Shown here: piece by piece, positions 541 through 57,535 of the stretch | How positions within the stretch are numbered: the stretch's first letter is position 1 | Layout of the letters: every line of letters begins with the position of its first letter | DNA from: Planctomycetota bacterium | Lineage (GTDB): Bacteria > Planctomycetota > GCA-002687715 | Direction: 5' to 3' | Assembly (NCBI GenBank): GCA_009691765.1 | Contig: SIAO01000002.1 | Location: 154,415 to 218,414, forward strand | Length of the DNA stretch: 64,000 nt | Program-made: the position numbers and the translations under genes | Notes under the pieces: model-generated | The model's database searches: none | What the model was told of the DNA's origin: nothing | What the model saw: the letters and a program-made list of their open reading frames with translations, nothing else

Positions 541-2013
541 TCATGCGCGGGGCGCACGAGGCGCGCAGGCGGTCACGCCAAAAGTGAGGAGCGAAGAGAT
601 TGGAATGAACCACGGCCAGGCGATGACTGGCTCGGGTAACCCGAAGATCTGCTTGTGGAAGAAGAGCATTGCGCCCGCAACGATGCCCACGCAGAGCGCG
701 AGCACGACGAAGCCGTCGCGCCGACGCGGCAGCAACAAAGCGCACAAGAATGTTCCCAGAATGCCGCCATACAGCACTGTCATGGCGGAGAGAGCGATGT
801 TGACAAGATCGTCGCTAGATTGCTCAGCCCACCAAACAAAGAACAGCGCGACGCCGAGCAACACCACGCCGCAACCCGCCATCAACATCCGCACGGAACG
901 CAGCGTGTTGGTGCGCGCTGGGAAGAGGTCTTTCGTCCAAGTGGCGACGACCGCATTGATAGTTGCGCCGAGGCTGGCCACTGCGGCCGCGAAAAGCCCG
1001 GCGAACACCAACCCGCGCAAACCTGAAGGCATCACATGCATGATGAAATTGGGGAACACACGACGCACTTCATCTTTGCCCACAATGCTGTAGCCCTCGG
1101 CAGGCAAATGCTGGTGATACACCCACAGCACCGTGCCTACCGACAAAAACATTCCGACGATCGGAAATGTGAACAGCCCCGAGACGATCAAGCTGCGTAC
1201 CGCTCCTTTTTCGGTGCGCACATTCAAGAGATGCTGCACGTTCTCTTGACATGTGCCGTGTGTGGCGAGCGTCAGGAACGCGCCTCCAATGATGGCCACG
1301 AGCAGCGGCTTGTGTGAAGCAAGCATGTTCTCGCCAGCGCCGAGATTGATGAATTGAAGTTTGCCGGCGGCGAGGGCCTCAGAGACTGCGCTGCCAAAGC
1401 CCACGCCCGCTTCATCGAGTTTCAGCACCGCGAACACCACGGCTGTCGTGGCACCGATGAAAAATATGGAGCCCTGCGCAACATCGGTCCACACCACAGC
1501 CTTCAAGCCGCCGAGCATGGTGTAGATCGTGGCGATGCAGCAAATGCCGACAATGGCTGCAAATAGATCCACCTGCGCGACAACGGCAAAAGCCACCGCA
1601 GCTATGAACGTGCGCACACCGCTGCCGATCAGGCGCCCAACCACAAAGGCCATCGCGGTGGCGCGCTGCGTACGCGGGCCGATGCGAGTAGCAAGAAAGC
1701 CGTAGGCCGTCGGCAGATTCAGGCGCCAATACAGCCGCACCAGCACTGTGCCCACAATAATCTTGCCGAGCAGCGCACCAATCGCGAACTGCAAGTAATT
1801 CCAGTTCGTGCTGAACGCCGATTCCGGCACACCGATGTAGGTCGCAGCGGACACTTCGGTGGCCAACACCGAAAACACCACAGCCCACGCGGGCAAGTCG
1901 CGATCAGCACGCAGATGAGCGTCGGCGCTTTTCGCACCTCGCCCCGCGCGCATGCCCACACCAACGATCAGCGCCACGTAGGCGCCGACTACAGACCAAT
2001 CCAACCAACCCAT
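541..2013 (-). CDS. sodium:solute symporter family (SSF) transporter
   Basis: The 507-aa ORF 541..2064 is polytopic and hydrophobic with SSF-type helices and loops; the start was trimmed to MGWLDW, and substrate is not assignable from sequence. Confidence 0.75.
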   Translation of the reverse strand: MGWLDWSVVGAYVALIVGVGMRAGRGAKSADAHLRADRDLPAWAVVFSVLATEVSAATYIGVPESAFSTNWNYLQFAIGALLGKIIVGTVLVRLYWRLNLPTAYGFLATRIGPRTQRATAMAFVVGRLIGSGVRTFIAAVAFAVVAQVDLFAAIVGICCIATIYTMLGGLKAVVWTDVAQGSIFFIGATTAVVFAVLKLDEAGVGFGSAVSEALAAGKLQFINLGAGENMLASHKPLLVAIIGGAFLTLATHGTCQENVQHLLNVRTEKGAVRSLIVSGLFTFPIVGMFLSVGTVLWVYHQHLPAEGYSIVGKDEVRRVFPNFIMHVMPSGLRGLVFAGLFAAAVASLGATINAVVATWTKDLFPARTNTLRSVRMLMAGCGVVLLGVALFFVWWAEQSSDDLVNIALSAMTVLYGGILGTFLCALLLPRRRDGFVVLALCVGIVAGAMLFFHKQIFGLPEPVIAWPWFIPISSLLTFGVTACAPRAPRA

Positions 2014-2064
2014 GCACGCGAGCTTATCAGGGCTGAAACCGCGCGCCTGCTCACAATGACACAC

Positions 2065-2850
2065 TCACCGCTGCACTTTGGGCAGACGCCGAATGTACAA
2101 GCTGCCGCCCATGTTCTTCGCACACAACGGCATTTCCTCTTTGATGAAATCGCCAAACATGAAGTGCACATAGGTGTTGAAGAACTGGATACTCCACTCG
2201 GAGTTGTAGGACAGAAACGCGCGTAGAAAATCGTTCTCATTCCAATAGCGACCCTGCACCAACCACTCGGCCGGATACTCGAATGGATAGAAAATGTCAT
2301 GGAAGTGAACAAAGACACCGGGTTGCAGACGCGGCAAGATCTCAAACATCAGGCGCTGCAAGTCGCTGCCACACTTGACGACATGACTTGAGTCAACGAA
2401 CAAGAGATCGCCTGACTACAGTGCCAAGAACGTATCCAGTGGGACCGTTTGAATCGGTTGGGCGATAATACTGACGTGTTCTCTGTCGCTGTCGCGCAGC
2501 AAACTCAGCAGGCGCGCTGGATACGGTTCAATAAACGTCATCTCAGGGCGCAGAGAGAAGCACGCATCAACCGTGTCCAGCATGACGGCGGATGAAAAGC
2601 CTGAGCCGACCTCAATAATCCGCTTTGGCTGATTCTTCCTTAGGAAGCAATACAGAAAAATGGCATCGGAGTCGCTGAACCAGCCGTTGTCGTAGAAGTA
2701 CCGGTGTGCAGGCGTCTGCTTTTCAGAAAACGGAACATCTGTGGTGAACGCTGCGGATTCGTGGAGCAACTCCTGCTGCCCCTTTGCGTTCAATTCTATC
2801 CCGAGGAGTTCCTTGCTTGGCGGTTGAGTTGCGGCGACGTACGCATGCAC
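2065..2850 (-). pseudogene. class I SAM-dependent methyltransferase (TylF/MycF/CmcI-like O-methyltransferase fold) interrupted by an in-frame TAG at 2416-2418
   Basis: ORFs 2416..2850 (N-terminal Rossmann part, motif I IIEVGSGFSS) and 2065..2403 (C-terminal part with LLFVDSSH...LPRLQPGVFVHFHDIFYPFEYP, matching the l.lD.DlYes...YP.L.pGG.i.DDY block) are in the same frame and separated only by TAG plus 4 codons. The locus is ~50% GC against ~65% for its surroundings. Confidence 0.55.
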
Positions 2851-2905
2851 GTCCTTCCGGGACGGGATGGTCTAATAGTAATGACCCGCCGGATAAACGC
2901 CTTGC

Positions 2906-3337
2906 TCACGGGTGTGTTTGCTGAGAGTTCGAAGCAGCGGCACTGGCGTTGATGTGCTTCACGATCTGCTTGTCTTCGTCGGAGATGTGATGCGCAAGCC
3001 AGTCCGCAAGAAAGACCATCACTACGATCGACAGAGTCATGTTGCCGGCAGCGTGCTTTGCTTCAATGTCTATGACCTTCTTGGTCAGATCGTCGTGAAA
3101 CACTTTGTGGGCGGCATAGCCGGGGAATCAACTTTCTCGCATGCTGGCTTCTTCAGCGCTGAAATGCTCAACAGTGTAGGTGCGCAGAAAGGCAAGCGTC
3201 CTGCCGATCTCCTCGCGGCCTGCGCCGCTTTTCATCGCGTCGTGAAGCTTGTTCACCGCGTCGAAAAGCCCAGCGGGCTGACGGTCGATGACTGCGTGTC
3301 CGACCTTGTAGCGGCCGTCGAATGTGATGAATGACAT
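2906..3337 (-). pseudogene. hemerythrin-like (bacteriohemerythrin) gene interrupted by an in-frame TGA at 3128-3130
   Basis: ORF 3128..3337 (...LHDAMKSGAGREEIGRTLAFLRTYTVEHFSAEEASMRES) and ORF 2906..3103 (FPGYAAHKVFHDDL...VMVFLADWLAHHISDEDKQ) are in frame and together reconstitute a full hemerythrin (HF..EE..M...Y..H...H...FL.DWL.HI). The stop aligns to a non-conserved linker residue and no SECIS-like hairpin follows it. Confidence 0.5.
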
Positions 3338-3531
3338 TAGCGGGTCCTTAAACAGCTAATCGGCAGCACTGCTACGCGACTTCGCCAAATCCCGCGCGGC
3401 CATGATCACGGGTAATGCACCCCGTTCACCCCGTTCGATGCGAGTGAACATTCGTGTTGCTGTGCTACGAGAGTGCCGGGCGAATCACCGCGACCTCAGC
3501 TTTTTCGTAGCTATTCATTCTCCGGAAGTCC

Positions 3532-4434
3532 GTGCCTGCAACGGCTTTGGCGAGTAGCAGCCCGCTGACCGATGTCAGTGCGATTGTGGATCCGATTGTC
3601 CTCATTGATCGAGAACATCATGCCCTGCTGCTGCGGTATGCTGGGCGCGTGCAGCAAACGCTATCGCTCTGTTTTTGTGTGATCGCCCTCGTGGCGTGTA
3701 CCGCAGAAGGCACGCGACAGGAAGCGGTGGCAGAGCGGCACGAGGAACGAACCATGACTCCGCCCAGCGCAGCAATCAGTGCGGACAAAATTCCGGTGTT
3801 AGATCGCTCACTTCCGGCAGAGGTGCAAAGCGCCACTTTCGCGATGGGATGATTTTGGGGGCCCGACTCCCGGTTCGGGAGTCTGCAAGGTGTGTTGCGT
3901 ACGCGCGTGGGCTATGCGGGCGGCAGCAGCGCGAATGTGAACTACAACAACATTGGCGATTGGATGGAAGCGATCCAAATCGACTTTGATCCCAAACAGG
4001 TCCACTACAAAGACTTGCTTGAGATCTTCTTCGCCGAGCACGATGCGTGCGACGCACCGTGGAAGCGACAATACGCGTCGGGAATCTTCTTTCACAATGA
4101 AGCTCAGAAGGAAGTTGCGACGCAGGCGCTCGCGGGCTTCGGCACCGCGCAAGGGCGCAAGCCTGTGACAGAGATTGCTCCCGTCGTCTTTGCGACCGCC
4201 GAGGACTATCACCAGAAGTACTACCTGCGTCAGACGCATGCCTTGGCAGCAGACCTTATTGCGGCATTCAACAAGAATGAGCACAATTTCCGCGAATCCA
4301 CCGCTGTGGCGCGTGTGAATGGATATCTCGCCGGAAACGGCGCCGCCACCGACTTAGCCCGTGAACTGAAAGAGCTTGGGCTTTCAGAGGCTGGACAGAA
4401 GTTCTTGACGCTCAGCCACGAACGCAATCGCTGA
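3532..4434 (+). CDS. msrA: peptide methionine sulfoxide reductase MsrA, a selenoprotein with in-frame TGA (Sec) at 3850-3852 in place of the catalytic Cys
   Basis: Track ORFs 3532..3852 (ends ATFAMG-stop) and 3892..4434 (MsrA core VGYAGG...) are in the same frame with a single TGA between them. Reading through gives ATFAMG-U-FWGPDSRFGSLQGVLRTRVGYAGG, versus E. coli MsrA AIFAMG-C-FWGVERLFW...GYTGG. An 8-bp hairpin with a GUU loop sits 12 nt downstream of the TGA. The N-terminus has a lipoprotein-like hydrophobic segment (LSLCFCVIALVAC), which suggests an exported enzyme; an alternative internal GTG start at 3649 is possible. GGAAG lies 5-9 nt upstream of the GTG at 3532. Confidence 0.75.
3865..3883 (+). 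promoter_or_regulatory. putative bacterial SECIS element (stem GACUCCCG/CGGGAGUC, apical loop GUU) directing Sec insertion at the msrA UGA
   Basis: A perfect 8-bp GC-rich inverted repeat gactcccg-gtt-cgggagtc begins 12 nt after the TGA at 3850-3852, with a G/U-containing apical loop, as in bacterial SECIS elements. Confidence 0.55.
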
Positions 4435-4442
4435 GCTCCAAG

Positions 4443-4476
4443 GCAGCGCGTCCTATCAGCAGCCGCCTTGGGCCAG
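4443..4476. terminator. hairpin between the convergent msrA and DUF1761 genes (possible bidirectional terminator)
   Basis: ccaaggc...gccttgg is a 7-bp GC-rich inverted repeat in the 56-nt convergent intergenic space. There is no clear U-tract, which is common in high-GC genomes. Confidence 0.3.
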
Positions 4477-4490
4477 ATTCATCGATGCGC

Positions 4491-4923
4491 TCACTTCGGC
4501 CAGAGCATGATGACTTCGGCCATAGCAATCAGCGTCACGAGGCTGTGACCGGCATCTACCATCCAAGCGCATATGGGAGCGTTGACGAACTTGGCGTGCG
4601 TGAGCGTGATAGGCATGGAGAAACCAAGCCAACAAAGGAATCCGAATCCAAGCGCGCACATCCAGTCTGATGGCATCTTCATGGCCCCGGCGAATACCGC
4701 CATCACCCAGCCCATAATGAAGTAAGTGATCAATGCGGTGGCGAACGGACCCGCACAGCCGCGCTTCTTCGTCTCCTCCAAATGTGCTTCCGTGAAACCG
4801 TGGGCCTTCACCCAAGCATTGGAGAAGAGAACCGGCGAATACCACAAGCCGCCAATGACAAATGCCACCAATGTGGACACCAACACGGACCAGCCATTCA
4901 CGCAATCGCAGATATTAGGCATG
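4491..4923 (-). CDS. DUF1761 family small membrane protein
   Basis: ORF 4491..4994 trimmed to MPNICDCVNGW...; it has 4 predicted TM helices and an YSPVLF/GWxxxxF pattern typical of DUF1761. A GGGAG RBS lies 7 nt upstream of the ATG at 4921-4923. Confidence 0.65.
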
Positions 4924-5052
4924 AGTTGCTCCCGATGGGATTGGCACCGACAGCTCGCGCCCCCCGCAAGCGTCTGCGGCGGATAATGCCACACGCAAGC
5001 ACCGCTGGATAGCCGCGAACCTCAGCGCAGCGCGTGGCGGCTGCCGGGTTTC

Positions 5053-5868
5053 TCAACGGAGCGCGTCTTCGAGCGCCGTAGCGGCGTCCGTGCGCGCGTC
5101 GCGATATTTCACAATGAGCGCTATGGATTTCGACAACCCCTGCGCCATGGCGTAATCGCCCTGAGCCTGCTGCATTCCTGGCACCACGACAGCCCCCGCT
5201 GGCACTTCGCCGCGCAAACTGCGCCCGTGCACAAGATCATGAATAACGCTCGCCGCTGTGAGGATCACACCTGCCGCCAACACCGCTCGTTCACGCACCA
5301 CCACACCTTCAAGCACTCCAGCAAGCGCACCAATGAACGCACCGTCCTCCACCACTACCGGCCGCGCACCTGCTGGCTCAAGCACACCGCCGATTTGCGC
5401 CCCCGCACTCAAATGAACGCGCGCGCCCACTTGCGCACACGAACCCACAAGTGCATGGCTATCCACCATGCTGCCTTCTCCCACCCACGCGCCGACATTC
5501 ACATAGGCCGGCGGCATCAGCACCACCCCTTTGCCAATGTGAGCCCCTCGCCGCACCGCGCTGCCTCCCGGCACGAGGCGCACCTGATCGTTCAAGGTGA
5601 ATGCGCGCGCTGGATACGCAGATTTGTCGAAGAAGGGAAACCCAGGCCCAGGCGTTGCAACCACGGTGCTATTGCGGAAACCCGCGAGGATGGCGCGCTT
5701 CACCCAAGCATGCGCAACCCAATCACCGGCAACATTGCGACTCGCTGCACGCACTTGGCCAGATTCCAAAGCATCCAACAACGCCGCATGAAATACCGTG
5801 AATTGCGGATCGGCCTGCACAGTGGCATCCGAGCGCTCGAAAAATGCGTGCAACGCTTCAGGCATCAT
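5053..5868 (-). CDS. dapD: 2,3,4,5-tetrahydropyridine-2,6-dicarboxylate N-succinyltransferase
   Basis: ORF 5053..5976 trimmed to MMPEALHAFFE. It has left-handed beta-helix hexapeptide repeats and DapD-like GAHIGKGVVLMP / VGSCAQVGARVHLSAGAQIGGVLEP blocks. Its start overlaps the dapA stop by 4 nt. Confidence 0.85.
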   Translation of the reverse strand: MMPEALHAFFERSDATVQADPQFTVFHAALLDALESGQVRAASRNVAGDWVAHAWVKRAILAGFRNSTVVATPGPGFPFFDKSAYPARAFTLNDQVRLVPGGSAVRRGAHIGKGVVLMPPAYVNVGAWVGEGSMVDSHALVGSCAQVGARVHLSAGAQIGGVLEPAGARPVVVEDGAFIGALAGVLEGVVVRERAVLAAGVILTAASVIHDLVHGRSLRGEVPAGAVVVPGMQQAQGDYAMAQGLSKSIALIVKYRDARTDAATALEDALR

Positions 5869-6767
5869 GCGCGCACGCCCTCCGCAGCAACACGCGCCTT
5901 TTGCAGCGCACGACGCAAGAGCTCGCATGTTGCTGGTTGCGCGTCCGTAAGTGGCAACCGCAGGTGCGAACCGCACAAACCCAATTCGGCGAGCGCGGCT
6001 TTCACCGGGATCGGATTGCTCTCAGCGAACAACGCGTCCATCAACGGCAGCAGCGCCGCATTCAACGCCGCGGCCTGATCGCGCCGGCCCGCACGTGCCG
6101 CATCCACGAGCGCTTTCATTTCGCGTGGCAATACATTGCCAAGGACCGACACCAACCCTTCCGCGCCGACAGCGATACTCGCGACGGCGAGATTATCGTC
6201 ACCTGCAAGAAGTGTCTTGCCCGGAGGCAACCACCGCGCCAGTTCTCCGATTTGCCCAAGATCGCCACTGGATTCTTTCAGCGCAACCACGCTTTCGATG
6301 CGCCAAAGCAAATCCATCGTGTCAGACGTCATATTCAATGCAGTGCGCCCGGGAACGTTGTAAGCCACGAGTGGCAAACCTGGAGCTGCATCTGCACAGG
6401 CACTGTAGTGCGCGACCAAACCAGCAGGCATAGGCTTGTTGTAATAGGGAGTGACAACCAACGCGCCATGAGCACCCAGCTGCTGTGCTCTACGCACCAG
6501 CGCCGCCGCGGTCTTGGTGCTATTCGATCCTGCACCTACACACACGCGCGCCGATCCAGCTTCTTCCAACACCGCCGTGATCACCGCATCGCGTTCTCGT
6601 TCATCAATCGTCGCTGCTTCACCCGTGGTGCCCAGTGGCACGACGAAATCCACGCCACCGCCTACGACATGACGCACAAGAGCGCGCAACGCGGGAAGAT
6701 CCAATGCGCCACTCGCACTGAACGGAGTCGCCAAGGCCACGCCAAGTCCGCTGAATGCAGGCTTCAT
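5865..6767 (-). CDS. dapA: 4-hydroxy-tetrahydrodipicolinate synthase
   Basis: 300-aa ORF with the DapA/NAL-family TIM-barrel signature (GTTGE, VVTPYYNKP, catalytic Lys region ALKESSGD). Confidence 0.9.
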   Translation of the reverse strand: MKPAFSGLGVALATPFSASGALDLPALRALVRHVVGGGVDFVVPLGTTGEAATIDERERDAVITAVLEEAGSARVCVGAGSNSTKTAAALVRRAQQLGAHGALVVTPYYNKPMPAGLVAHYSACADAAPGLPLVAYNVPGRTALNMTSDTMDLLWRIESVVALKESSGDLGQIGELARWLPPGKTLLAGDDNLAVASIAVGAEGLVSVLGNVLPREMKALVDAARAGRRDQAAALNAALLPLMDALFAESNPIPVKAALAELGLCGSHLRLPLTDAQPATCELLRRALQKARVAAEGVRA

Positions 6768-7495
6768 TCGAGGGCTCCCAAGACGCCTTCGAGAGCGCTA
6801 CGCGCCACATCGTCCATCGTGAATAGGCCACGCTTTACACTGAGAAATGCAGCCGCCATCACAGCCCCGCGCCCACAAGGCAACAGCGAGCGCGCTTCAT
6901 GACGAAGCTCAATGGCTTCATCGGCGCTGTCGATGCCCACCACATGCCAACTGTGTTGCCCGGAACCCGCGCGCACCGAACTGACGCAGAGCTCTTCCGC
7001 CGTCAGAGCCGCTGCGCCCGGTGTAGCGGTGCCATGCTTGTTGGATAGTTGCGAGAGCATGCGGTTCGCCAACAACTTCGCAGTGCCACTCGGCGCATCC
7101 ACTTTCTTCGCGTGGTGCTTCTCCATCACATACGGATCGAAACCCGGAGTGACACTCGCATAGCGCGCAAGCACGGCGGCCAAGCGCGCCATGAGAGCCA
7201 CACTCAACGAGAAATTGGGCGCGATGAGCAAGCCGATGCGCCCCTGCGCACGCTCGGCCAAGGCGCGCGCGTCGATGTCCGTGACACCAACGACGAAGGG
7301 CGTCTCCGCGGCGAGCGCCCAATCGAGATGCTCCGTCACCGCTGCGGGCAAACTGCAATCCACGGCAACATCCACGCGGCCCAGAGGAGCGCACGCGCCG
7401 CGACCGAGCATCCATGCCACTTCATGGCCAGCAGCCACCGCCGCCGTACTCACGGCTTGTGCCAAACGCCCGCGCCCAAAGATGCCGATTCTCAT
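6764..7495 (-). CDS. dapB: 4-hydroxy-tetrahydrodipicolinate reductase
   Basis: 243-aa ORF with an N-terminal Rossmann motif (MRIGIFGRGRLAQ) and the DapB C-terminal block (EKHHAKKVDAPSGTA). Overlaps its neighbours by 4 nt. Confidence 0.85.
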   Translation of the reverse strand: MRIGIFGRGRLAQAVSTAAVAAGHEVAWMLGRGACAPLGRVDVAVDCSLPAAVTEHLDWALAAETPFVVGVTDIDARALAERAQGRIGLLIAPNFSLSVALMARLAAVLARYASVTPGFDPYVMEKHHAKKVDAPSGTAKLLANRMLSQLSNKHGTATPGAAALTAEELCVSSVRAGSGQHSWHVVGIDSADEAIELRHEARSLLPCGRGAVMAAAFLSVKRGLFTMDDVARSALEGVLGALE

Positions 7496-8865
7496 GCGCC
7501 ACCTCCAGGGAGGAGTTCCGCGTGCAAGCGCCGCAGCGCTTCATGCGCATCTGCATTCGCGAGCACAAGGCTGAGATTGATCTCATTGGCACCCATGCTG
7601 ATCATTTCGATATTCATGCCGCGCAATGCGGCAAACGCACGGGCTGCCACACCAGGCGTGCTGCGCAATTGCTCGCCCACCAAAGCCACGATGGCGCGCT
7701 CGCGCACAACAGTCGCCTTCGCGAATGCGCGAATCTCATCGAGAGCTCGGTCCATGTCCACATCGTTTTCAACCGTCACCGACACCGAGATTTCTGCCGT
7801 GGCCACCAAGTCCACGCTGATGGCATGCCGTCCAAAGATCTCGAAGAGTTTTGCGAGAAAACCAGGTTGATCCAACATGCGGCTGGATGTGACGGTGACC
7901 ACGGCCACCGGCCCGCGTGAAGCCAAAGCCGTGATGGCGCGCCCACTCTTCACATCTCCGCGAATGGTGCTGAATCGTCCATCAGGTTTTTGCGTGTGGC
8001 GCACTGTCACTGGGATGCCCGCTTCTACGGCCGGTTGAATTGTCGAAGGATGCAGCACCTTGGCGCCGAAAGCTGCGAGCTCAGCCGCTTCGGCAAAAGA
8101 AAGTTCCGCTATAGGCTGCGCTTGCGGCACGACGCGCGGGTCGCAGGTGAGCACGCCTTCGACATCCGTCCAGATTTGCACTTCTGAACTCTTCAACGCT
8201 GCGCCAAGCAACGCCGCGGAATAATCGCTGCCTCCACGCCCAAGCGTTGTCGTGAGCCCTTCAGCGGTTGCTCCGATGTAGCCCTGCGTGACCACAACGC
8301 GCCCAATCCCGAGTTGCGGCGCAAGCTGTTCTGCGGCGAGCGTTGCGATAACGCGCGGCAACGGTGTTGCGGCGCCGCTCTTGGTGTCTGTGCGCAAGAC
8401 ACGCCGTGCATCGAAGAGCGTGACCTCCATGCCGGCATGACGCAGATGATGAGAGAAAATCAGCGTGCTCAAGCGTTCGCCGTGGCTCGCCACCGCATCC
8501 ATGCTGCGCAGACTCAGCTCGCGCACCATGCTCAAGCCCGTCAAGAGCGTGAGCAATTCCTTGAAATGCGCCGCAAGTTCGACGTGCAACTCGTCGGGCA
8601 CGCGGCGATCCATCAAATCGAGCGCTGTTTGTTCGTGGCGCTGCATCAAAGCTGAATGAGCTTCTGTAGCTTCTTCCAATTGTCCCTGCGCTGCCATGCG
8701 CGCAGCGCGAAACAACCCATCCGTAGTCTTGCCCATCGCTGAAAGCACTACGAGTGGCGCACGCGACAGCGAGCGACGCACCAGCGACGCCACCACGCGC
8801 ATGCACGCAGCATCAGCCAGCGACGATCCGCCGAACTTCATGATGAGTGGCTGTACGGCACTCAC
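7492..8865 (-). CDS. lysC: aspartate kinase
   Basis: 457-aa ORF with the MKFGGSS kinase N-terminus, VVSAMG, and C-terminal ACT regulatory domains. Confidence 0.9.
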   Translation of the reverse strand: MSAVQPLIMKFGGSSLADAACMRVVASLVRRSLSRAPLVVLSAMGKTTDGLFRAARMAAQGQLEEATEAHSALMQRHEQTALDLMDRRVPDELHVELAAHFKELLTLLTGLSMVRELSLRSMDAVASHGERLSTLIFSHHLRHAGMEVTLFDARRVLRTDTKSGAATPLPRVIATLAAEQLAPQLGIGRVVVTQGYIGATAEGLTTTLGRGGSDYSAALLGAALKSSEVQIWTDVEGVLTCDPRVVPQAQPIAELSFAEAAELAAFGAKVLHPSTIQPAVEAGIPVTVRHTQKPDGRFSTIRGDVKSGRAITALASRGPVAVVTVTSSRMLDQPGFLAKLFEIFGRHAISVDLVATAEISVSVTVENDVDMDRALDEIRAFAKATVVRERAIVALVGEQLRSTPGVAARAFAALRGMNIEMISMGANEINLSLVLANADAHEALRRLHAELLPGGGA

Positions 8866-9935
8866 CGAAGTAGCCCCTTATGCGCGGCCAATTCCGCATT
8901 GAGCAAACTGCCGCCGGCCGCGCCGCGCTCCGTGTTGTGCCCGAGCACCGTCATTTTGATCCCGAACAGAGAGCAAGGCCGAATACGGCCAATGTGCACC
9001 GACATGCCGGTGTCGCGTTCCACATCCACGCGGGGTTGCGGGCGATCCTCCTCGGTGTGCAACACCAAGACGCGCTGCGGCGCTGAATGCAATTTGAGTT
9101 GCTGCGGTTCAGGCGTCCACTCAACGAGCGCTTTGGCTACAGCGACAGGTGTTGGGGCACCCTTCAGTCGCACAGATACCGAAAGCGTATGGCCTTCTTG
9201 CACTGGAACGCGATGACATGCCGCACTCACGACAGCATGGGTGGGAATCACAGCGCCACCGCGCAGCGCCCCCAGCAATTTGACTGTCTCCAACTCCACT
9301 TTGGATTCTTCGCCACGAATGTGCGGAATAATGTTGCCCAGAATGTCGAGCGCGGACACACCCGGATAACCGGCCCCAGAGATCGCTTGCATGCTCACCA
9401 TGTGCACGGCTTCAATGCCGAACACCACATCGAGGGGTTTCAGCGCCATCACCAAAACAGTGCTGGTGCAATTCGGATTGGTGATGATGCCGCCGCTCCA
9501 ACCACGACGCGCTCTTTGCACTGACAGCAACTCGAGATGCTCTGGATTCACTTCCGGTACGAGCAGTGGAACATCCTCGGCCATGCGAAATGCTGCCGCG
9601 TTGGAAAACACAATCGCACTGGCCGCCGCGAAAAGTGGTTCCAGTTCTTGCGCAGGCCCGGTGTCGAGCGCAGAGAACACGACGCGAGCCGTCACGGCTG
9701 TCGGCGTGCAGGGTAAGAGTGTTTGCGCCCCATAACCGCCATAGGGCTCGCCGTCCAAACGCCACGCGCAGGCCTCGTCGTAGCGTTTGCCTACGCTGCG
9801 TTCCGAAGCCGCTATTTGCACCAAGCGGAATTGCGGATGCGCCGCAAGTCTGCGCACAAACCGTTGCCCCACGACTCCGGTGGCGCCAAGGACCGCAACA
9901 TCAATACGATTTGCACTCACAGCGGCTGCTCCCAA
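8862..9935 (-). CDS. asd: aspartate-semialdehyde dehydrogenase
   Basis: 357-aa ORF with VAVLGATGVVGQ NAD(P) binding and an active-site Cys region NPNCTST. Confidence 0.9.
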   Translation of the reverse strand: MGAAAVSANRIDVAVLGATGVVGQRFVRRLAAHPQFRLVQIAASERSVGKRYDEACAWRLDGEPYGGYGAQTLLPCTPTAVTARVVFSALDTGPAQELEPLFAAASAIVFSNAAAFRMAEDVPLLVPEVNPEHLELLSVQRARRGWSGGIITNPNCTSTVLVMALKPLDVVFGIEAVHMVSMQAISGAGYPGVSALDILGNIIPHIRGEESKVELETVKLLGALRGGAVIPTHAVVSAACHRVPVQEGHTLSVSVRLKGAPTPVAVAKALVEWTPEPQQLKLHSAPQRVLVLHTEEDRPQPRVDVERDTGMSVHIGRIRPCSLFGIKMTVLGHNTERGAAGGSLLNAELAAHKGLLR

Positions 9936-10978
9936 AAGTGCTCTGACAGGCGCAGCAGCAAAGCCACACCGGCATCGAGGTCGGCGCGCGTCAGATGTTC
10001 GTGTGCCGTGTGTGCCACTTCAATGGCGCCGGGCCCGGCGAGCACCACAGTCCGGGACGGCACCAAAGCGCGCACGCGCGGGGCATCACTACCGAACGAC
10101 ACCATGGCTCGCGGAAACCCTGGCACTTCCGGGAAGCGCGCCGCAGGCGTGTGGTTGAGTTGCTGCACCTGTCCGCATTCGGGTTTGTGAGCTTGCACTA
10201 ATTCCGTGAAGTTCGAATCCGGCAATTCGCGCAGCAATAGGACCGCTGCAGCGTGCTCGGGAACAATGTTGGGCGCACAGCCTCCACTGATTTGTCCGAG
10301 ATTCCACACCTCGGGGCCGAGCTCTGCGTCAGCAGGCCGCTCTTCCATGCGCAGTGCTTGGACCCAATCCAATAACGGCCAAATAGCACTGCGGCCAAGC
10401 TCTGGAGTGCCACTGTGCGCTGGCTCGCCTTTGCAAGTGAGTTGCAGAATACGCACACCGCGCTGGCCCGACCCCAACACATTGTGCGTGGGCTCGCCGT
10501 TGAACACTGCACGCAGTTGCGGGAAGCGTCCGCGCAGAGTGAGCTCCGCATGTTTCGCGCCAAGCGAATCGGTTTCTTCACCCACAACTCCCAACCATGC
10601 CACATCATGCATGCCGCGTTGCGCCAACGCTGCGATGGCAGCGAATTGCGCCACCATCTGCCCTTTGGCATCGCAAGTGCCGCGCCCGTAGAGCGTGTCG
10701 CCTTTGAGATGTGGCGCAATGAACGGTGGCACGGTGTCGCAATGCGTACTGAACAACAGCTTTGGTGTGCCGCGCCACGCGAGCACATTGTGCCGACCTG
10801 GCGCAACTTCGATCAGTTCCACTTTCAGTCCGAGGCCAGCGAGCTGCGCATGCAACACGGGCAGCAAGCGGTCTTCCACTCCTGTGGTCGAATCCACAGC
10901 GCAAAGCTCGCGCAGCGCTCTGAATCGCCCTTCAGAAGTGAGGAACTCGCTGACCATGGTTGCAAGTATGGCCGCCAC
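9917..10978 (-). CDS. dapE: M20 family metallopeptidase, probable succinyl-diaminopimelate desuccinylase (DapE; ArgE not excluded)
   Basis: 353-aa ORF with M20 motifs (HCDTVP, GRGTCDAKG, GEETDS). The dapE assignment rests on its position at the head of the dap/lysC/asd array. Confidence 0.65.
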   Translation of the reverse strand: MAAILATMVSEFLTSEGRFRALRELCAVDSTTGVEDRLLPVLHAQLAGLGLKVELIEVAPGRHNVLAWRGTPKLLFSTHCDTVPPFIAPHLKGDTLYGRGTCDAKGQMVAQFAAIAALAQRGMHDVAWLGVVGEETDSLGAKHAELTLRGRFPQLRAVFNGEPTHNVLGSGQRGVRILQLTCKGEPAHSGTPELGRSAIWPLLDWVQALRMEERPADAELGPEVWNLGQISGGCAPNIVPEHAAAVLLLRELPDSNFTELVQAHKPECGQVQQLNHTPAARFPEVPGFPRAMVSFGSDAPRVRALVPSRTVVLAGPGAIEVAHTAHEHLTRADLDAGVALLLRLSEHFWEQPL

Positions 10979-38809: not shown

Positions 38810-39982
38810 ATGGCCAACCCGCTGCTCAAGACCGATTTCTACGACGTGGATGGCTTGTTCGAAGAAGAAGAGTTGTTGGCGCGCGACGAAGTGCGGCGCT
38901 GGGTGCGCGAGCGCTTCATGCCCATCGTGGAGCACTGCTACCGCGACGGCGAGTTCCCGCTGGAACGCGCGTTGGAGCTGGCCAAACTCGGCACCTTTGG
39001 CGCCAACTTGCACGGTTACGGCTGCGCCGGAATGTCCTCCACCGCCTACGGACTGATGATGCAAGAGTTGGAGTGGTGCGACTCCGGCCTGCGCTCGTTC
39101 GTGTCCGTGCAAGGCGCGCTTTGCATGTATCCCATCTACGCCTTCGGCAGCGACGCGCAGAAAGAGAAGTACTTGCCCGGCATGGCTGAAGGCAAGATTC
39201 TCGGGTGCTTCGGCCTCACCGAACCGGATTTCGGCAGCAACCCCGGCGGCTTGCTCGCCAAAGCTGAAGATCGCGGCAGCCACTATCGCCTCAACGGCGC
39301 CAAGATGTGGATCACCAGTTCGCCGCTCGCGCACTTCGCCATTGTCTGGGCCAAACTCGACGGCAAGATCTGCGGCTTCATCGTCGAGCGCGAGCGCGAA
39401 GGCTTCTCCACTCCTGTGCAAGACCGCAAGTGGTCACTGCGCTGCTCCGTCACCGGCGAAATCGTGATGCAGGATGTGGACATTCCCAAAGAAAACTTGC
39501 TGCCCGGCGCAATCGGCCTGAAAACCGCTCTCGCGTGCCTGTCACAAGCGCGCTACGGCATCGCTTATGGCGCGATCGGTGCTGCCGCGAGCTGCTACGA
39601 AACCGCGCGGGATTACACCCTTAGCCGCATTCAGTTCGGCAAGCCGCTCGCATCATTCCAGTTGATCCAGACCAAACTGGCCAACATGCTCACCGAGATC
39701 ACGAAAGCGCAGATGCTGTGCTGGCGCCTCGGCCGCTTGAAGGATGTGGGCAAGATGGATTTCGCGCAGGTCTCCATGGCCAAGCGCAACAATGTCGGCC
39801 GTGCCTTGGAAATCGCGCGCACGGCTCGGGACATGCTCGGAGCCAACGGCATCACCGACGAATACCCCGTGGGTCGCCACATGATGAACCTCGAAACGGT
39901 GAACACCTACGAAGGCACCTACGACATCCATGGGCTCATCCTCGGCGAACGCATCACCGGGATTCAGTCCTACGGCGGCTGA
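38810..39982 (+). CDS. gcdH: glutaryl-CoA dehydrogenase
   Basis: 390-aa acyl-CoA dehydrogenase with near-identity to GCDH signature blocks (GYGCAGMSSTAYGL, ELEWCDSGLRSFVSVQ, MYPIYAFGS, KYLPGMAEGKILGCFGLTEP, NTYEGTYDIHGLILGERITGIQ). Confidence 0.85.
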   Translation: MANPLLKTDFYDVDGLFEEEELLARDEVRRWVRERFMPIVEHCYRDGEFPLERALELAKLGTFGANLHGYGCAGMSSTAYGLMMQELEWCDSGLRSFVSVQGALCMYPIYAFGSDAQKEKYLPGMAEGKILGCFGLTEPDFGSNPGGLLAKAEDRGSHYRLNGAKMWITSSPLAHFAIVWAKLDGKICGFIVEREREGFSTPVQDRKWSLRCSVTGEIVMQDVDIPKENLLPGAIGLKTALACLSQARYGIAYGAIGAAASCYETARDYTLSRIQFGKPLASFQLIQTKLANMLTEITKAQMLCWRLGRLKDVGKMDFAQVSMAKRNNVGRALEIARTARDMLGANGITDEYPVGRHMMNLETVNTYEGTYDIHGLILGERITGIQSYGG

Positions 39983-54535: not shown

Positions 54536-57535
54536 ATGCCATTCCGTATTGCCCTACTCCTACTTGCTCTCTGGACCTGCGGCTTGGCGCAAGACGCCGC
54601 AGCCCTCGCAGAGAAACTCCCGAAGTGCGCCGCCGTGGTGCTCGATGGCAGCCAGCTATTCCTTCAAGCCCCGAACGCCACCAGATTCGTAGTTCGCAGC
54701 GTGACCGCGGAAGGCGCCGCGGTGGTCGAAGCCAAACAGCGCGCAGTGAATGTCGACGCAGACTTGTTGCATGCCGATGCAAGCGCCGCGCTCAACATGC
54801 TGGAGCAACTCGTCACGCAGGCGACGAAAGATGGCGTCGATGGAGCGCTGCGGCTGCGCTCGGTCCCGTTGGTTGGCCCGCACCTGAGTAGCGGTACAGC
54901 TTGGGTGCTGCCGGAAGGCGTTGCGAAAAAACAGCCGGGCTCCTCGCCCGCAACGCGCCTAGCTTTGGCCGACGCTGTGAAGCCCTTGGAAAGTCGTGTG
55001 AAATCCCTCGAAGTCACTCCTGCTGGGCAACAGGCCGTCAGTCAGCTCCTCGCGATGCTCACGGAAGACGAAACCACGGATTCTTTCCTCAAGCCGCCGT
55101 TCGCGCGGGCGCTCGTGCGTGGTGGTTGGCTGCGGACGCTGCCGCAATTGGATGCAGAAGCTCGGCGTCTCGAAACGGCACTCGCCGCCGCTGAAGCGCT
55201 CCGCCCGAAACTCATGTGGGTGGGTAAAGGCATCCGCGTCGCCGAACTCACCAACGCCTTCGGTGCCAGTGGCTGGACGTTGCAAACGCCGCTGCGCAGT
55301 GGTTACGCACGCGTGCTGCCGAAACCAGGATTCGACCCGGCCTGCCCCGAACTTTCTTTGGTTGTGAGCTTGCCGGCTGGCAGCGACCCACTCAAAGACG
55401 CAGCCAAGGCTACGAATGCTGAAGTGCTGTTCGACGGCATGGTGTTGGCGCGCTGGTCTGCCGCAGGCTTGGTCGCTGACAGCGACACATGGCGCAAGAC
55501 GGTTGCGCAACACTCGCTGCGCACGCCGGGTATCGCGAAAGGTTTTTTGCCGCCGCACATTCCGCTCTTCGATCTTGACGGCACACTTCACAAGCTCATC
55601 ACCGCGCATGGTGTCCTTGATATGGCTGAGGCCAAGAACTCCGCTGCGTTCCTCAACGCTGCTGCGAAGGTCCTGCCCGACGTAGGACACATGGACCTCT
55701 TGGGTGAGTGCATGTTCACCTATGTGCTCGACAGCCCAGACCCACGCTTCCCGTTGCTCGTGGGTACCGACAAAGTGCAAGGAGAGATTCACCAAACCGT
55801 CGCGCAAACACTCGCGACCACCAGTGGTGGCATTTGTCGCGGCGACTGCGACGACATCGCCGAGCTCTATCAAGAAGTTGCGCTGCGTCAGGGCAAGCTC
55901 GCTCACATCGCGAATCTCCCAGGCCATGCTGCGTGCTTCTGGGTGGACAAACTCGAAGACGGCGGCTTCGTCGCACATGTGTTGCAGACGGGACCGCCGA
56001 TGTCTTTCGCTGCCAAGACCGTGCCGGAAGCGTTACGCGCCGCGTACACCGAGTTTGGTATCGCTGACAATTTCGATCCCGATCAAATCGCCGTCGCCAT
56101 CCGCTTCAACGGCGAAAACCAACGCAGCACTTGGGTTCTTGGCTGGCGCATCTTCACAGAGAAGGACTACGCCACAGCCATGATCGATGTGCAGCGCGAT
56201 TGGCATTTCCACACGTTCAGGCGCGGCATTGTGAAAATGGAAGCGATGGTGGCAGGCGGCGACAAAGATCCCGCCAACGAGCGCGAGCTCGTGGGTTTGT
56301 GCGAAGCCACTGCGCAGTGGTCTGCAGCGGTAGAACATGTGAAGCGCGCGCAAGCTGCCGGGGATCCAACATTCACCTTGGCCACGCGCCTCATCGCAGA
56401 TCTCTTTGAATCCGGGCAGCGCGATGCAGCCCAAGCGGCCGTCGAAGCGCTGCTCACAACAGACCTCCCTGCAGCGGCGAAATCCCTCGGCCTCGGCATG
56501 ACGTCGGTCGGGTTTCAGTTGGCTGGCACCGTCCTTGCGAGCGGTCGTGATCCTGCGTTGGCGGCGCGCTGCTTGGACAGCACATGCACGGCGCAAGTGC
56601 AACGCTTGATCACCCAGCTCGGCGGTTTCATTCGCAGCAATCGTTTCAACGCCGAAGCGTGGAAACACGATGGCACGATGGTGGAACTGAGGCGTCTGAT
56701 TCGCACCTATGTCAGTCTCGGGTGCGGCATCCTCGAAGATGCGCCGAGCCTCTTGGCCGATGCCAACCCAGCGGCCACGCGCATTTCGCAACAAGTCGAG
56801 CAGTGGCTCGCCACCATCGCGTTTCGCGACTTCGATGAGCCTGCTGAACTCTTAGATCGTTATGCAGATGCAGGGCGTTACGCCGCCATCGCCCTTGGCA
56901 ACGAGCGTTTCCATTCGATGTTGCAACGCGGCGAATGGCCAACGCAATTGCCGACGGAACCATGGACGCGCAGTGCAGGCGTCGCACAGCTCACACAAGA
57001 TGCCGCCTTCGTGCGCATGGCGCCGTCCTGGTACGGACAACAACTCTTGAATCAGTTCGGCACCGGCCGCAAGACCTATGACGCCGCGTTGGTGCAACGC
57101 TTGTGGAAGGGCATGGAGAGCGCTCGCACTGCGGCGCGCAAGCTCGGGCTGGAGAGCCGCGTGATGGATCAACTGATGGCCAGTTGCCGCGTGATGGCCA
57201 ACGCCGCCCTCAAAGACAAAGCAGGACTCAAGGCAGCGTTGATTGCAGTGGCGCAGCAAAACGACAAGCATCTGCGCGACCAAGTCGTGGCGTGGATGGG
57301 CCAGTCCGCGCGCTTCTTCGACACCGTTTGGTTCGGCGAGATGCTGACCGTGTTCGACGCTGAAATTCACTACAAACCCAGCTATTTCGAGATCGCTTGG
57401 AAGGCTGCGCAAGGTGGGGCCATTCCACACGCTTTGTTGGCCGCAGACCTCGCAGAGAAGCGCTTCGGCGACGATCCGACTTTCCGCGAAGAAGCCGCAT
57501 GGTTGCGGGCTCTGCTCGGTCCGAAGAAACCTTGA
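54536..57535 (+). CDS. secreted 999-aa hypothetical protein
   Basis: Signal peptide MPFRIALLLLALWTCGLAQDA. It is a long ORF with consistent codon usage and no recognisable catalytic motif. Confidence 0.55.
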   Translation: MPFRIALLLLALWTCGLAQDAAALAEKLPKCAAVVLDGSQLFLQAPNATRFVVRSVTAEGAAVVEAKQRAVNVDADLLHADASAALNMLEQLVTQATKDGVDGALRLRSVPLVGPHLSSGTAWVLPEGVAKKQPGSSPATRLALADAVKPLESRVKSLEVTPAGQQAVSQLLAMLTEDETTDSFLKPPFARALVRGGWLRTLPQLDAEARRLETALAAAEALRPKLMWVGKGIRVAELTNAFGASGWTLQTPLRSGYARVLPKPGFDPACPELSLVVSLPAGSDPLKDAAKATNAEVLFDGMVLARWSAAGLVADSDTWRKTVAQHSLRTPGIAKGFLPPHIPLFDLDGTLHKLITAHGVLDMAEAKNSAAFLNAAAKVLPDVGHMDLLGECMFTYVLDSPDPRFPLLVGTDKVQGEIHQTVAQTLATTSGGICRGDCDDIAELYQEVALRQGKLAHIANLPGHAACFWVDKLEDGGFVAHVLQTGPPMSFAAKTVPEALRAAYTEFGIADNFDPDQIAVAIRFNGENQRSTWVLGWRIFTEKDYATAMIDVQRDWHFHTFRRGIVKMEAMVAGGDKDPANERELVGLCEATAQWSAAVEHVKRAQAAGDPTFTLATRLIADLFESGQRDAAQAAVEALLTTDLPAAAKSLGLGMTSVGFQLAGTVLASGRDPALAARCLDSTCTAQVQRLITQLGGFIRSNRFNAEAWKHDGTMVELRRLIRTYVSLGCGILEDAPSLLADANPAATRISQQVEQWLATIAFRDFDEPAELLDRYADAGRYAAIALGNERFHSMLQRGEWPTQLPTEPWTRSAGVAQLTQDAAFVRMAPSWYGQQLLNQFGTGRKTYDAALVQRLWKGMESARTAARKLGLESRVMDQLMASCRVMANAALKDKAGLKAALIAVAQQNDKHLRDQVVAWMGQSARFFDTVWFGEMLTVFDAEIHYKPSYFEIAWKAAQGGAIPHALLAADLAEKRFGDDPTFREEAAWLRALLGPKKP

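Follow-up and report, generated by a model that had tools for sequence, protein, structure and literature searches.

Bacterial pseudogenes formed by nonsense substitution are characterized by homology that runs through the stops, damaging missense changes, fixed lesions, intact neighbouring genes and split annotation. Bacteriohemerythrins, such as McHr of Methylococcus capsulatus (PDB 4xpx), bind iron through a diiron ligand set composed of H, HxxxE, HxxxH and HxxxxD. Class I SAM-dependent methyltransferases of the Methyltransf_24 family include a 'YrrM-like' group of ~301 aa. Known prokaryotic selenoprotein families include MsrA in its GUFWG selenocysteine form (PMC13188914).

Members of all three families lie side by side in the window, the whole 64-kb stretch of Planctomycetota DNA that was analysed. 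Two of the genes, a bacteriohemerythrin followed by a methyltransferase, are adjacent and co-oriented, share the above features of nonsense pseudogenes, and are very probably both dead through fixed base substitutions. They differ from ordinary bacterial pseudogenes in that all disabling lesions are substitutions, with no frameshift. Leftward from position 3337, the minus strand carries the bacteriohemerythrin (3337 to 2906), the class I SAM methyltransferase (about 2943 to 2065), 51 nt of spacer and a sodium:solute symporter (2013 to 541); msrA is on the plus strand, divergent from these three (Table 1). The 3' end of the hemerythrin gene (2906) overlaps the 5' region of the methyltransferase (up to about 2943) in a different frame. 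Nonsense codons across the two genes number three in total, two TAG and one TGA. The rest of the window contains about 46 uninterrupted genes, terminated in the gene map by TGA (38), TAA (5) or TAG (3), and the genetic code in the window is standard. No tRNA genes were detected in the 64-kb window. Rfam searches at E <= 10 over positions 1500-5000 give chance-level matches only (DnaX, E 0.78; pRNA, E 7.9). A Markov-model scan for further in-frame stops left the known ones unflagged, because the hemerythrin and methyltransferase score poorly under the host model, and is superseded by the gene map, in which every other gene is intact; the same-frame pairs that the scan flagged (39980, 57533) are merely adjacent genes.

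Table 1. Features of the hemerythrin-methyltransferase locus and of the neighbouring msrA (positions in the window).
Feature	Position	Strand	Characteristics
Methyltransf_24-family class I SAM methyltransferase, very probable pseudogene	2065..2943	-	Homology begins at GTG/Val codon 2941-2943; terminal TGA 2065-2067
TAG no. 1, methyltransferase	2872..2874	-	Replaces invariant Ser of GHYYSPIPS
TAG no. 2, methyltransferase	2416..2418	-	Inside LAL-x-SGDLLF(V/I)DSSH, directly ahead of conserved acidic motif
Bacteriohemerythrin pseudogene (very probable)	2906..3337	-	143 codons counting internal TGA; NF033749, TIGR02481, PF01814
In-frame TGA of hemerythrin, codon 70	3128..3130	-	Loop ahead of conserved (Y/F)P motif
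Codon 21 of hemerythrin, CCC (Pro)	3275..3277	-	Position of first iron-ligand His (D-x-Q-H)
msrA, genuine selenoprotein (context)	3649..4434	+	Probable GTG start 3649; Sec-TGA 3850-3852 in G-U-FWG; PF01625
SECIS-like hairpin, GACTCCCG-GTT-CGGGAGTC	3865..3883	+	Begins 12 nt past msrA TGA

The hemerythrin frame, read through its TGA, matches NF033749 'bacteriohemerythrin' with 121.7 bits (cut-off 84, residues 4-129), TIGR02481 with 104.6 bits and PF01814 with a score of 48.8 (threshold 25.3). Similarity to the bacteriohemerythrin of PDB 4xpx is at E 6e-19. As in McHr, the profile match is full-length and the conserved Trp and Phe are retained; unlike McHr, the window gene has Pro for the first ligand His and a TGA at codon 70. 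His is found at codon 21 in 85/85 single-domain homologs. The Pro at this position aligns with the H of 'DDQHK' in 4xpx, the solved McHr structure, and the His that it replaces is taken by us to be the first iron ligand. The diiron ligand set is incomplete: 6 of 7 positions are present and the first His is lost. The column of the TGA contains Gly (29), Ala (15), Asn (12), Lys (7) and other residues; Cys is found in none of the 85 homologs. The next start is a GTG, 9 codons past the stop. Insertions or deletions relative to the 85 homologs were not detected. Judged from these residues, the window hemerythrin cannot be a working bacteriohemerythrin.

The methyltransferase matches PF13578 (Methyltransf_24) at E 1.4e-10 and 42.4 bits (gathering score 26.3). 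Among Pfam profiles only this one is matched, with no TylF match even at E <= 10, and the earlier TylF/MycF-like label does not hold. A PDB sequence search gives no match, and no relative of solved structure was found by it. Homologs number 5393, most of them ~301 aa in length, the best with 75% identity (E 4e-127); by tblastn the identity is 71.6% across 289 aa, spanning both TAGs. Likeness to the 'YrrM-like' group of Methyltransf_24 therefore amounts to 72-75% identity over the whole length, and the window gene differs from that group by two in-frame TAGs and by the replacement of a conserved Tyr and a conserved Pro. The translation aligns with homologs from 'VPLLRTLSKHTREQGVYPAGHYY*TIPS' on. 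Upstream, '…TREQGVYPAGHYY*TIPSRKDV…' in the window corresponds to '…RKQGAYPAGHYYSPIPSEEDV…' in homologs. Homology thus continues upstream of the start assumed in the earlier note, which places a further in-frame TAG (no. 1) in 'GHYY*TIPS', at about codon 24 and at a column that is Ser in 118/118 homologs. TAG no. 2, at about codon 176, is spanned by the PF13578 domain; homologs have Glu (80), Lys (15), Gln (14) or Gly (6) in its column. The next start after TAG no. 2 is a TTG, 4 codons on and in the same frame.

Internal insertions or deletions relative to the family are not observed in the methyltransferase. The glycine-rich motif EVGSGFSS, presumably the SAM-binding motif I of class I methyltransferases, and the motif DLLFVDSSH are intact. 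Of 86 columns conserved at >=97%, the window gene departs at 4 (homolog mean 0.68; only 2/120 homologs depart as much), the replaced residues including a Tyr->Asp at a fully invariant Tyr and a Pro->Thr beside TAG no. 1. This excess is suggestive of decay and is confounded by the gene belonging to an outlier lineage (<=75% identity to any homolog). The sole methyltransferase SNP of strain L001, at window position 2217, changes to Val a Phe that is invariant in 120/120 homologs.

The earlier note had described both genes as split in frame, the methyltransferase by the TAG at 2416-2418 with halves 4 codons apart and the hemerythrin by the TGA at 3128-3130. Position, frame and TTG restart agree with the former, and NF033749 homology crosses the stop in the latter. 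Both of its stops stand, but the third, TAG no. 1, had been overlooked. Its view that these are point nonsense lesions in decaying genes gains from that third stop, the lost ligand His, the replaced conserved residues and the segregating change at the invariant Phe.

Inactivation of the hemerythrin would have come about through the opal stop at codon 70 and the loss of the first iron-binding His (Pro21), and that of the methyltransferase through amber stops at about codon 24 (invariant Ser) and about codon 176 (Glu/Lys/Gln). The stops would merely end translation, no full-length protein would be made from either gene, and the DNA would drift free of selection. Decay is probably young, because all lesions are substitutions, indels are absent and most motifs are still readable. 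We infer that expression and function are lacking and that the change is neutral. Counting against the pseudogene reading, three nonsense mutations without a frameshift or in-frame indel are slightly unusual for neutral decay: the chance of zero indels is ~2-15%, as a rough estimate for 2-4% neutral divergence and an indel ratio of 1:10 to 1:20. This indel-free set of nonsense lesions leaves a few per cent of probability for read-through or residual selection.

It is possible, and compatible with the two genes being pseudogenes, that the low-GC stretch is a recently acquired foreign islet, unadapted to the host; this is put forward tentatively. The G + C content of 2065-3340 is 53.6%, whereas the window averages 61.2% and the flanks have 57-61%; no other stretch of equal length in the window is as low in GC as this 1.3 kb (0.1 percentile, z -4.4). 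The low-GC islet noticed earlier is thus real, but its figures of 50% versus 65% exaggerate the difference and are not reproduced. GC3 is host-like, which speaks against a foreign islet: 0.66 in the methyltransferase (z -0.7), 0.69 in the hemerythrin (z -0.2) and 0.66 in msrA, host genes having 0.70 +/- 0.05. GC2 is 0.37, 0.38 and 0.44, respectively, with 0.48 +/- 0.04 in host genes, and the values of the two pseudogenes are the lowest in comparison with 45 host genes. Since GC3 is normal and the deficit lies at codon positions 1 and 2, the AT-richness comes from the amino-acid composition of the two families and is no unameliorated signature of a donor; a low-GC 'islet' can come from amino-acid composition alone. 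Synonymous codon choice, given the amino-acid sequence, is atypical in the methyltransferase (z -4.5) and hemerythrin (z -2.6), as expected of a foreign islet, but also in msrA (z -2.9), which is conserved at the locus in the relative L004, so that the codon signal is not insert-specific; it is normal in the symporter (z -0.9). Such codon choice is in keeping with genes that are accessory, foreign or expressed at a low level, and is no proof of recent arrival.

Scanning GTDB genomes with the symporter as query yielded a single relative, the MAG L004, whose symporter is 88% identical at the amino-acid level and whose gene order is dapD, DUF1761, msrA(Sec), symporter, GH3. Hemerythrin and methyltransferase are both absent from this locus, and the stretch between msrA and the symporter, ~4.8 kb, instead has genes that are unrelated (with 754-aa and 575-aa ORFs), together with a putative IS-transposase fragment (read by eye). 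Because its content differs, the msrA-symporter interval is variable, and the L004 lineage can do without the pair. The absence in L004 favours a foreign islet, as does the taxonomic scatter of the nearest methyltransferase homologs over Cyanobacteria, Methylococcales, Verrucomicrobiota and Desulfobacterales; however, with a single relative, a gain in the window lineage looks the same as a loss in L004. Marks of insertion likewise fail to support an islet: only short, chance-level repeats flank it, no integrase or other mobility ORF is present in 2031-3648, and the window is free of tRNA genes.

Pairing of hemerythrin with methyltransferase is observed at 0/39 distant hemerythrin loci and 0/5 loci of the closest methyltransferase homolog, and a conserved operon of the two, considered as a candidate, is rejected on this count. 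The closest methyltransferase homolog is followed by a 270-aa partner gene, whereas the window methyltransferase has no such partner. Intact close orthologs were not found in the databases searched (GTDB scan, JGI metagenomes, 90% clusters, protein search): the JGI metagenome scan for a closer hemerythrin ortholog gives 46% identity at best, clustering at 90% groups the four fragments with no other sequence, and the piece lying between TAG no. 1 and TAG no. 2, used as a protein query, returns nothing from 65% to 99% identity. Comparison with related genomes, which had been proposed in the earlier note, accordingly yields the absence of the pair in L004 but no intact copies in these databases. 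An accessory or foreign origin of the pair is plausible. The recent acquisition suggested earlier is partly supported, with atypical codon choice and absence in L004 set against normal GC3 and the lack of mobility marks.

Function of the fragments as split or truncated proteins, that is, hemerythrin halves of 69 aa and 65 aa and re-initiated methyltransferase pieces, is very unlikely. Starts do occur soon after two of the stops (the TTG past TAG no. 2 and the GTG past the TGA), and gene callers list the pieces as ORFs. Nevertheless, the hemerythrin break cuts a four-helix bundle and leaves iron ligands on both halves, the ligand His is lost, and the methyltransferase break cuts a single Rossmann-fold domain (PF13578 across TAG no. 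2). The four fragments are in clusters without relatives, so a family of such split forms does not exist there.

The neighbouring msrA provides the standard against which recoding can be judged. It matches PF01625 at E 3e-34, and its TGA is at the catalytic position, in G-U-FWG. The probable GTG start is followed by a lipoprotein-like signal peptide (…ALVAC). The hairpin past the TGA is 8 bp long and G+C-rich (MFE -28.9 kcal/mol, z -2.0). In L004 the TGA is retained and so is the hairpin, which differs by one A-U -> G-U change of the compensatory type. In these respects, UGA in place of the catalytic Cys, a strong downstream hairpin and retention of both in L004, the gene resembles the selenoprotein MsrA family. 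The msrA of the window is a genuine GUFWG selenoprotein gene, and the recoding of its TGA claimed in the earlier note stands on the catalytic motif, the hairpin and their conservation.

Programmed recoding or read-through of the other stops is highly improbable. Under it, selenocysteine would be inserted at the hemerythrin TGA and the TAGs would be decoded by pyrrolysine or a suppressor tRNA, with full-length proteins made from both genes. In its favour, the organism decodes one UGA as Sec in the adjoining msrA, and apart from the stops both frames are open, without indels. However, an in-frame TGA is the sole feature that the hemerythrin shares with selenoprotein MsrA (GUFWG), and its TGA falls at a variable loop position never occupied by Cys. 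A SECIS-like hairpin was not detected after it: the 66 nt downstream fold at an MFE of -13.5 kcal/mol (z -0.97 vs shuffles) with a 4-bp stem only, and no Rfam match is found for the region. Hemerythrin is unmentioned in a 2026 review of prokaryotic selenoproteins (PMC13188914). Pyrrolysine is disfavoured as well, the methyltransferase being a PF13578 protein and not a methylamine methyltransferase (MtmB/MtbB/MttB), and its two TAG columns holding different residues, an invariant Ser in one and Glu/Lys/Gln in the other. Both TAG and TGA terminate other genes of the window, among them an RlmI-like methyltransferase gene that is TAG-terminated at full profile length. The window lacks a tRNA gene, and a hemerythrin made by read-through would still be one iron ligand short.

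Three independently assembled Logan contigs, L001 (SRR8561390), L002 (SRR8561391) and L003 (SRR12053441), match the locus base by base at 99.9-100% identity, with 6, 0 and 1 SNPs against the window, respectively. Within the first 8 kb, the six L001 SNPs are confined to positions 2217-4472. Each of the three contigs carries the same three stops as the window, and the msrA TGA, reached by L001 alone, is likewise the same. Since L001 and L003 differ elsewhere, at least three haplotypes carry the lesions. The same split gene fragments are present in an ENA assembly (228-kb contig) and in an NCBI Planctomycetota MAG (290-kb contig; EXS14_… locus tags), the link being the identical gene fragments alone. 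The ENA, NCBI and Logan copies were found by exact-protein look-up. In this Planctomycetota organism, the natural population is very probably fixed for the lesions. That the stops are sequencing or assembly errors in genes that are really intact, an option raised in the earlier note, is scarcely credible: it has some prior plausibility for a MAG, but the stops are identical in three independent assemblies, of which L001 and L003 are distinct haplotypes, the ENA contig and the NCBI MAG hold the same split fragments, and the lesions are substitutions and not homopolymer indels.

In public gene calls the two pseudogenes appear as ORFs of 69, 65, 144 and 94 aa. 'Hypothetical protein' is the name given to the 144-aa and 94-aa ORFs; in the NCBI MAG, both MSR74240.1 and MSR74239.1 carry it. 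The same calls cut msrA into 106 + 180 aa, ahead of the catalytic Sec, and leave an N-terminally truncated msrA. Public annotation has thus fallen into the trap that was foreseen, splitting both pseudogenes and msrA.

Read-through at a useful rate, by a suppressor tRNA or SECIS-independent UGA decoding, would supply low or conditional hemerythrin and methyltransferase beside the oxidative-stress gene msrA, and the missing frameshifts would then reflect continuing selection on the frames; there is very little chance of this. With both genes very probably dead, the feature is ordinary gene decay of dispensable accessory genes, of an already known kind and without a novel coding trick. The locus poses no new biological question. 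Its 2.4 kb hold three genes with in-frame stops of two meanings, one Sec codon and three lesions, and its value is mainly practical, as a compact test case for pipelines that separate recoding from decay.

Atypical synonymous codon choice is found in msrA, the selenoprotein gene beside the hemerythrin and methyltransferase pseudogenes (z -2.9), and more weakly in the DUF1761 gene (z -1.7). The anomaly therefore spans about 2065-4900, past both pseudogenes. When the first 8 kb were compared with L001 (Logan contig of run SRR8561390, same locus in another strain), all six SNPs fell within 2217-4472, an interval covering 28% of that length (chance about 5e-4 under an even spread). Two of the six are non-synonymous: one turns a methyltransferase Phe into Val, and the other replaces Arg by Gln in the pre-domain region of msrA. 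Such clustering points to either relaxed constraint or recombination around the pseudogene pair and msrA.

The msrA neighbourhood is a rearrangement hot spot. In L004, the sole relative recovered (a MAG), ORFs of 754 and 575 aa lie between msrA and the symporter gene, together with an 83-aa ORF, judged by eye to be the putative C-terminal part of an ISL3-type transposase. About 3.6 kb of additional DNA separates DUF1761 from msrA in L004.

At every locus recovered for the closest intact homolog of the window methyltransferase (P0001; JGI metagenome contigs, loci L006-L010), a 270-aa gene without a Pfam match comes next and overlaps it. At one of these loci, transposase HTH genes and a gene for a group II intron reverse transcriptase lie nearby. 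The homolog and its partner may form a conserved two-gene module; the window would then carry only the methyltransferase half.

Features of the window and of the L004 locus
Feature	Location	Strand	Remark
msrA	window 3649-4434	+	
msrA 5' part, with N-terminal extension	window 3649-3852	+	MQQTLSLCFCVIALVAC-TAEG
DUF1761 gene	window 4491-4901	-	
DnaX frameshifting element, weak Rfam match	window 4612-4675	+	18.5 bits vs gathering score 35, E 0.78
TGA between same-frame genes	window 39980-39982	+	
TGA between same-frame genes	window 57533-57535	+	
SNPs, window vs L001	window 2217, 3492, 3548, 3749, 4445, 4472		n=6
msrA-symporter interval, L004	CAMDTN010000011.1, about 5000-9984		
83-aa ORF, L004	9623-9874	-	
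msrA 5' part, with N-terminal extension, L004	about 4944-5150	-	MQRRTLISLGLLFALCAC-TAEA

Two further TGA codons were read-through candidates in a naive scan and were rejected. Each divides two long adjacent genes in the same frame, the next ATG lies 2-4 codons past the TGA in both pairs, and the pairs are simply neighbouring genes. The DnaX element match, within or antisense to the DUF1761 gene, is most likely due to chance.

In public gene calls msrA appears as two ORFs of 106 and 180 aa, and the catalytic Sec is lost. The probable start codon of msrA is GTG 3649, far upstream of ATG 3754. The resulting N-terminal extension resembles the signal peptide of a lipoprotein, lipobox Cys included, and a matching extension is kept in L004. 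Given this predicted signal peptide and its conservation, the selenoprotein MsrA may be exported.
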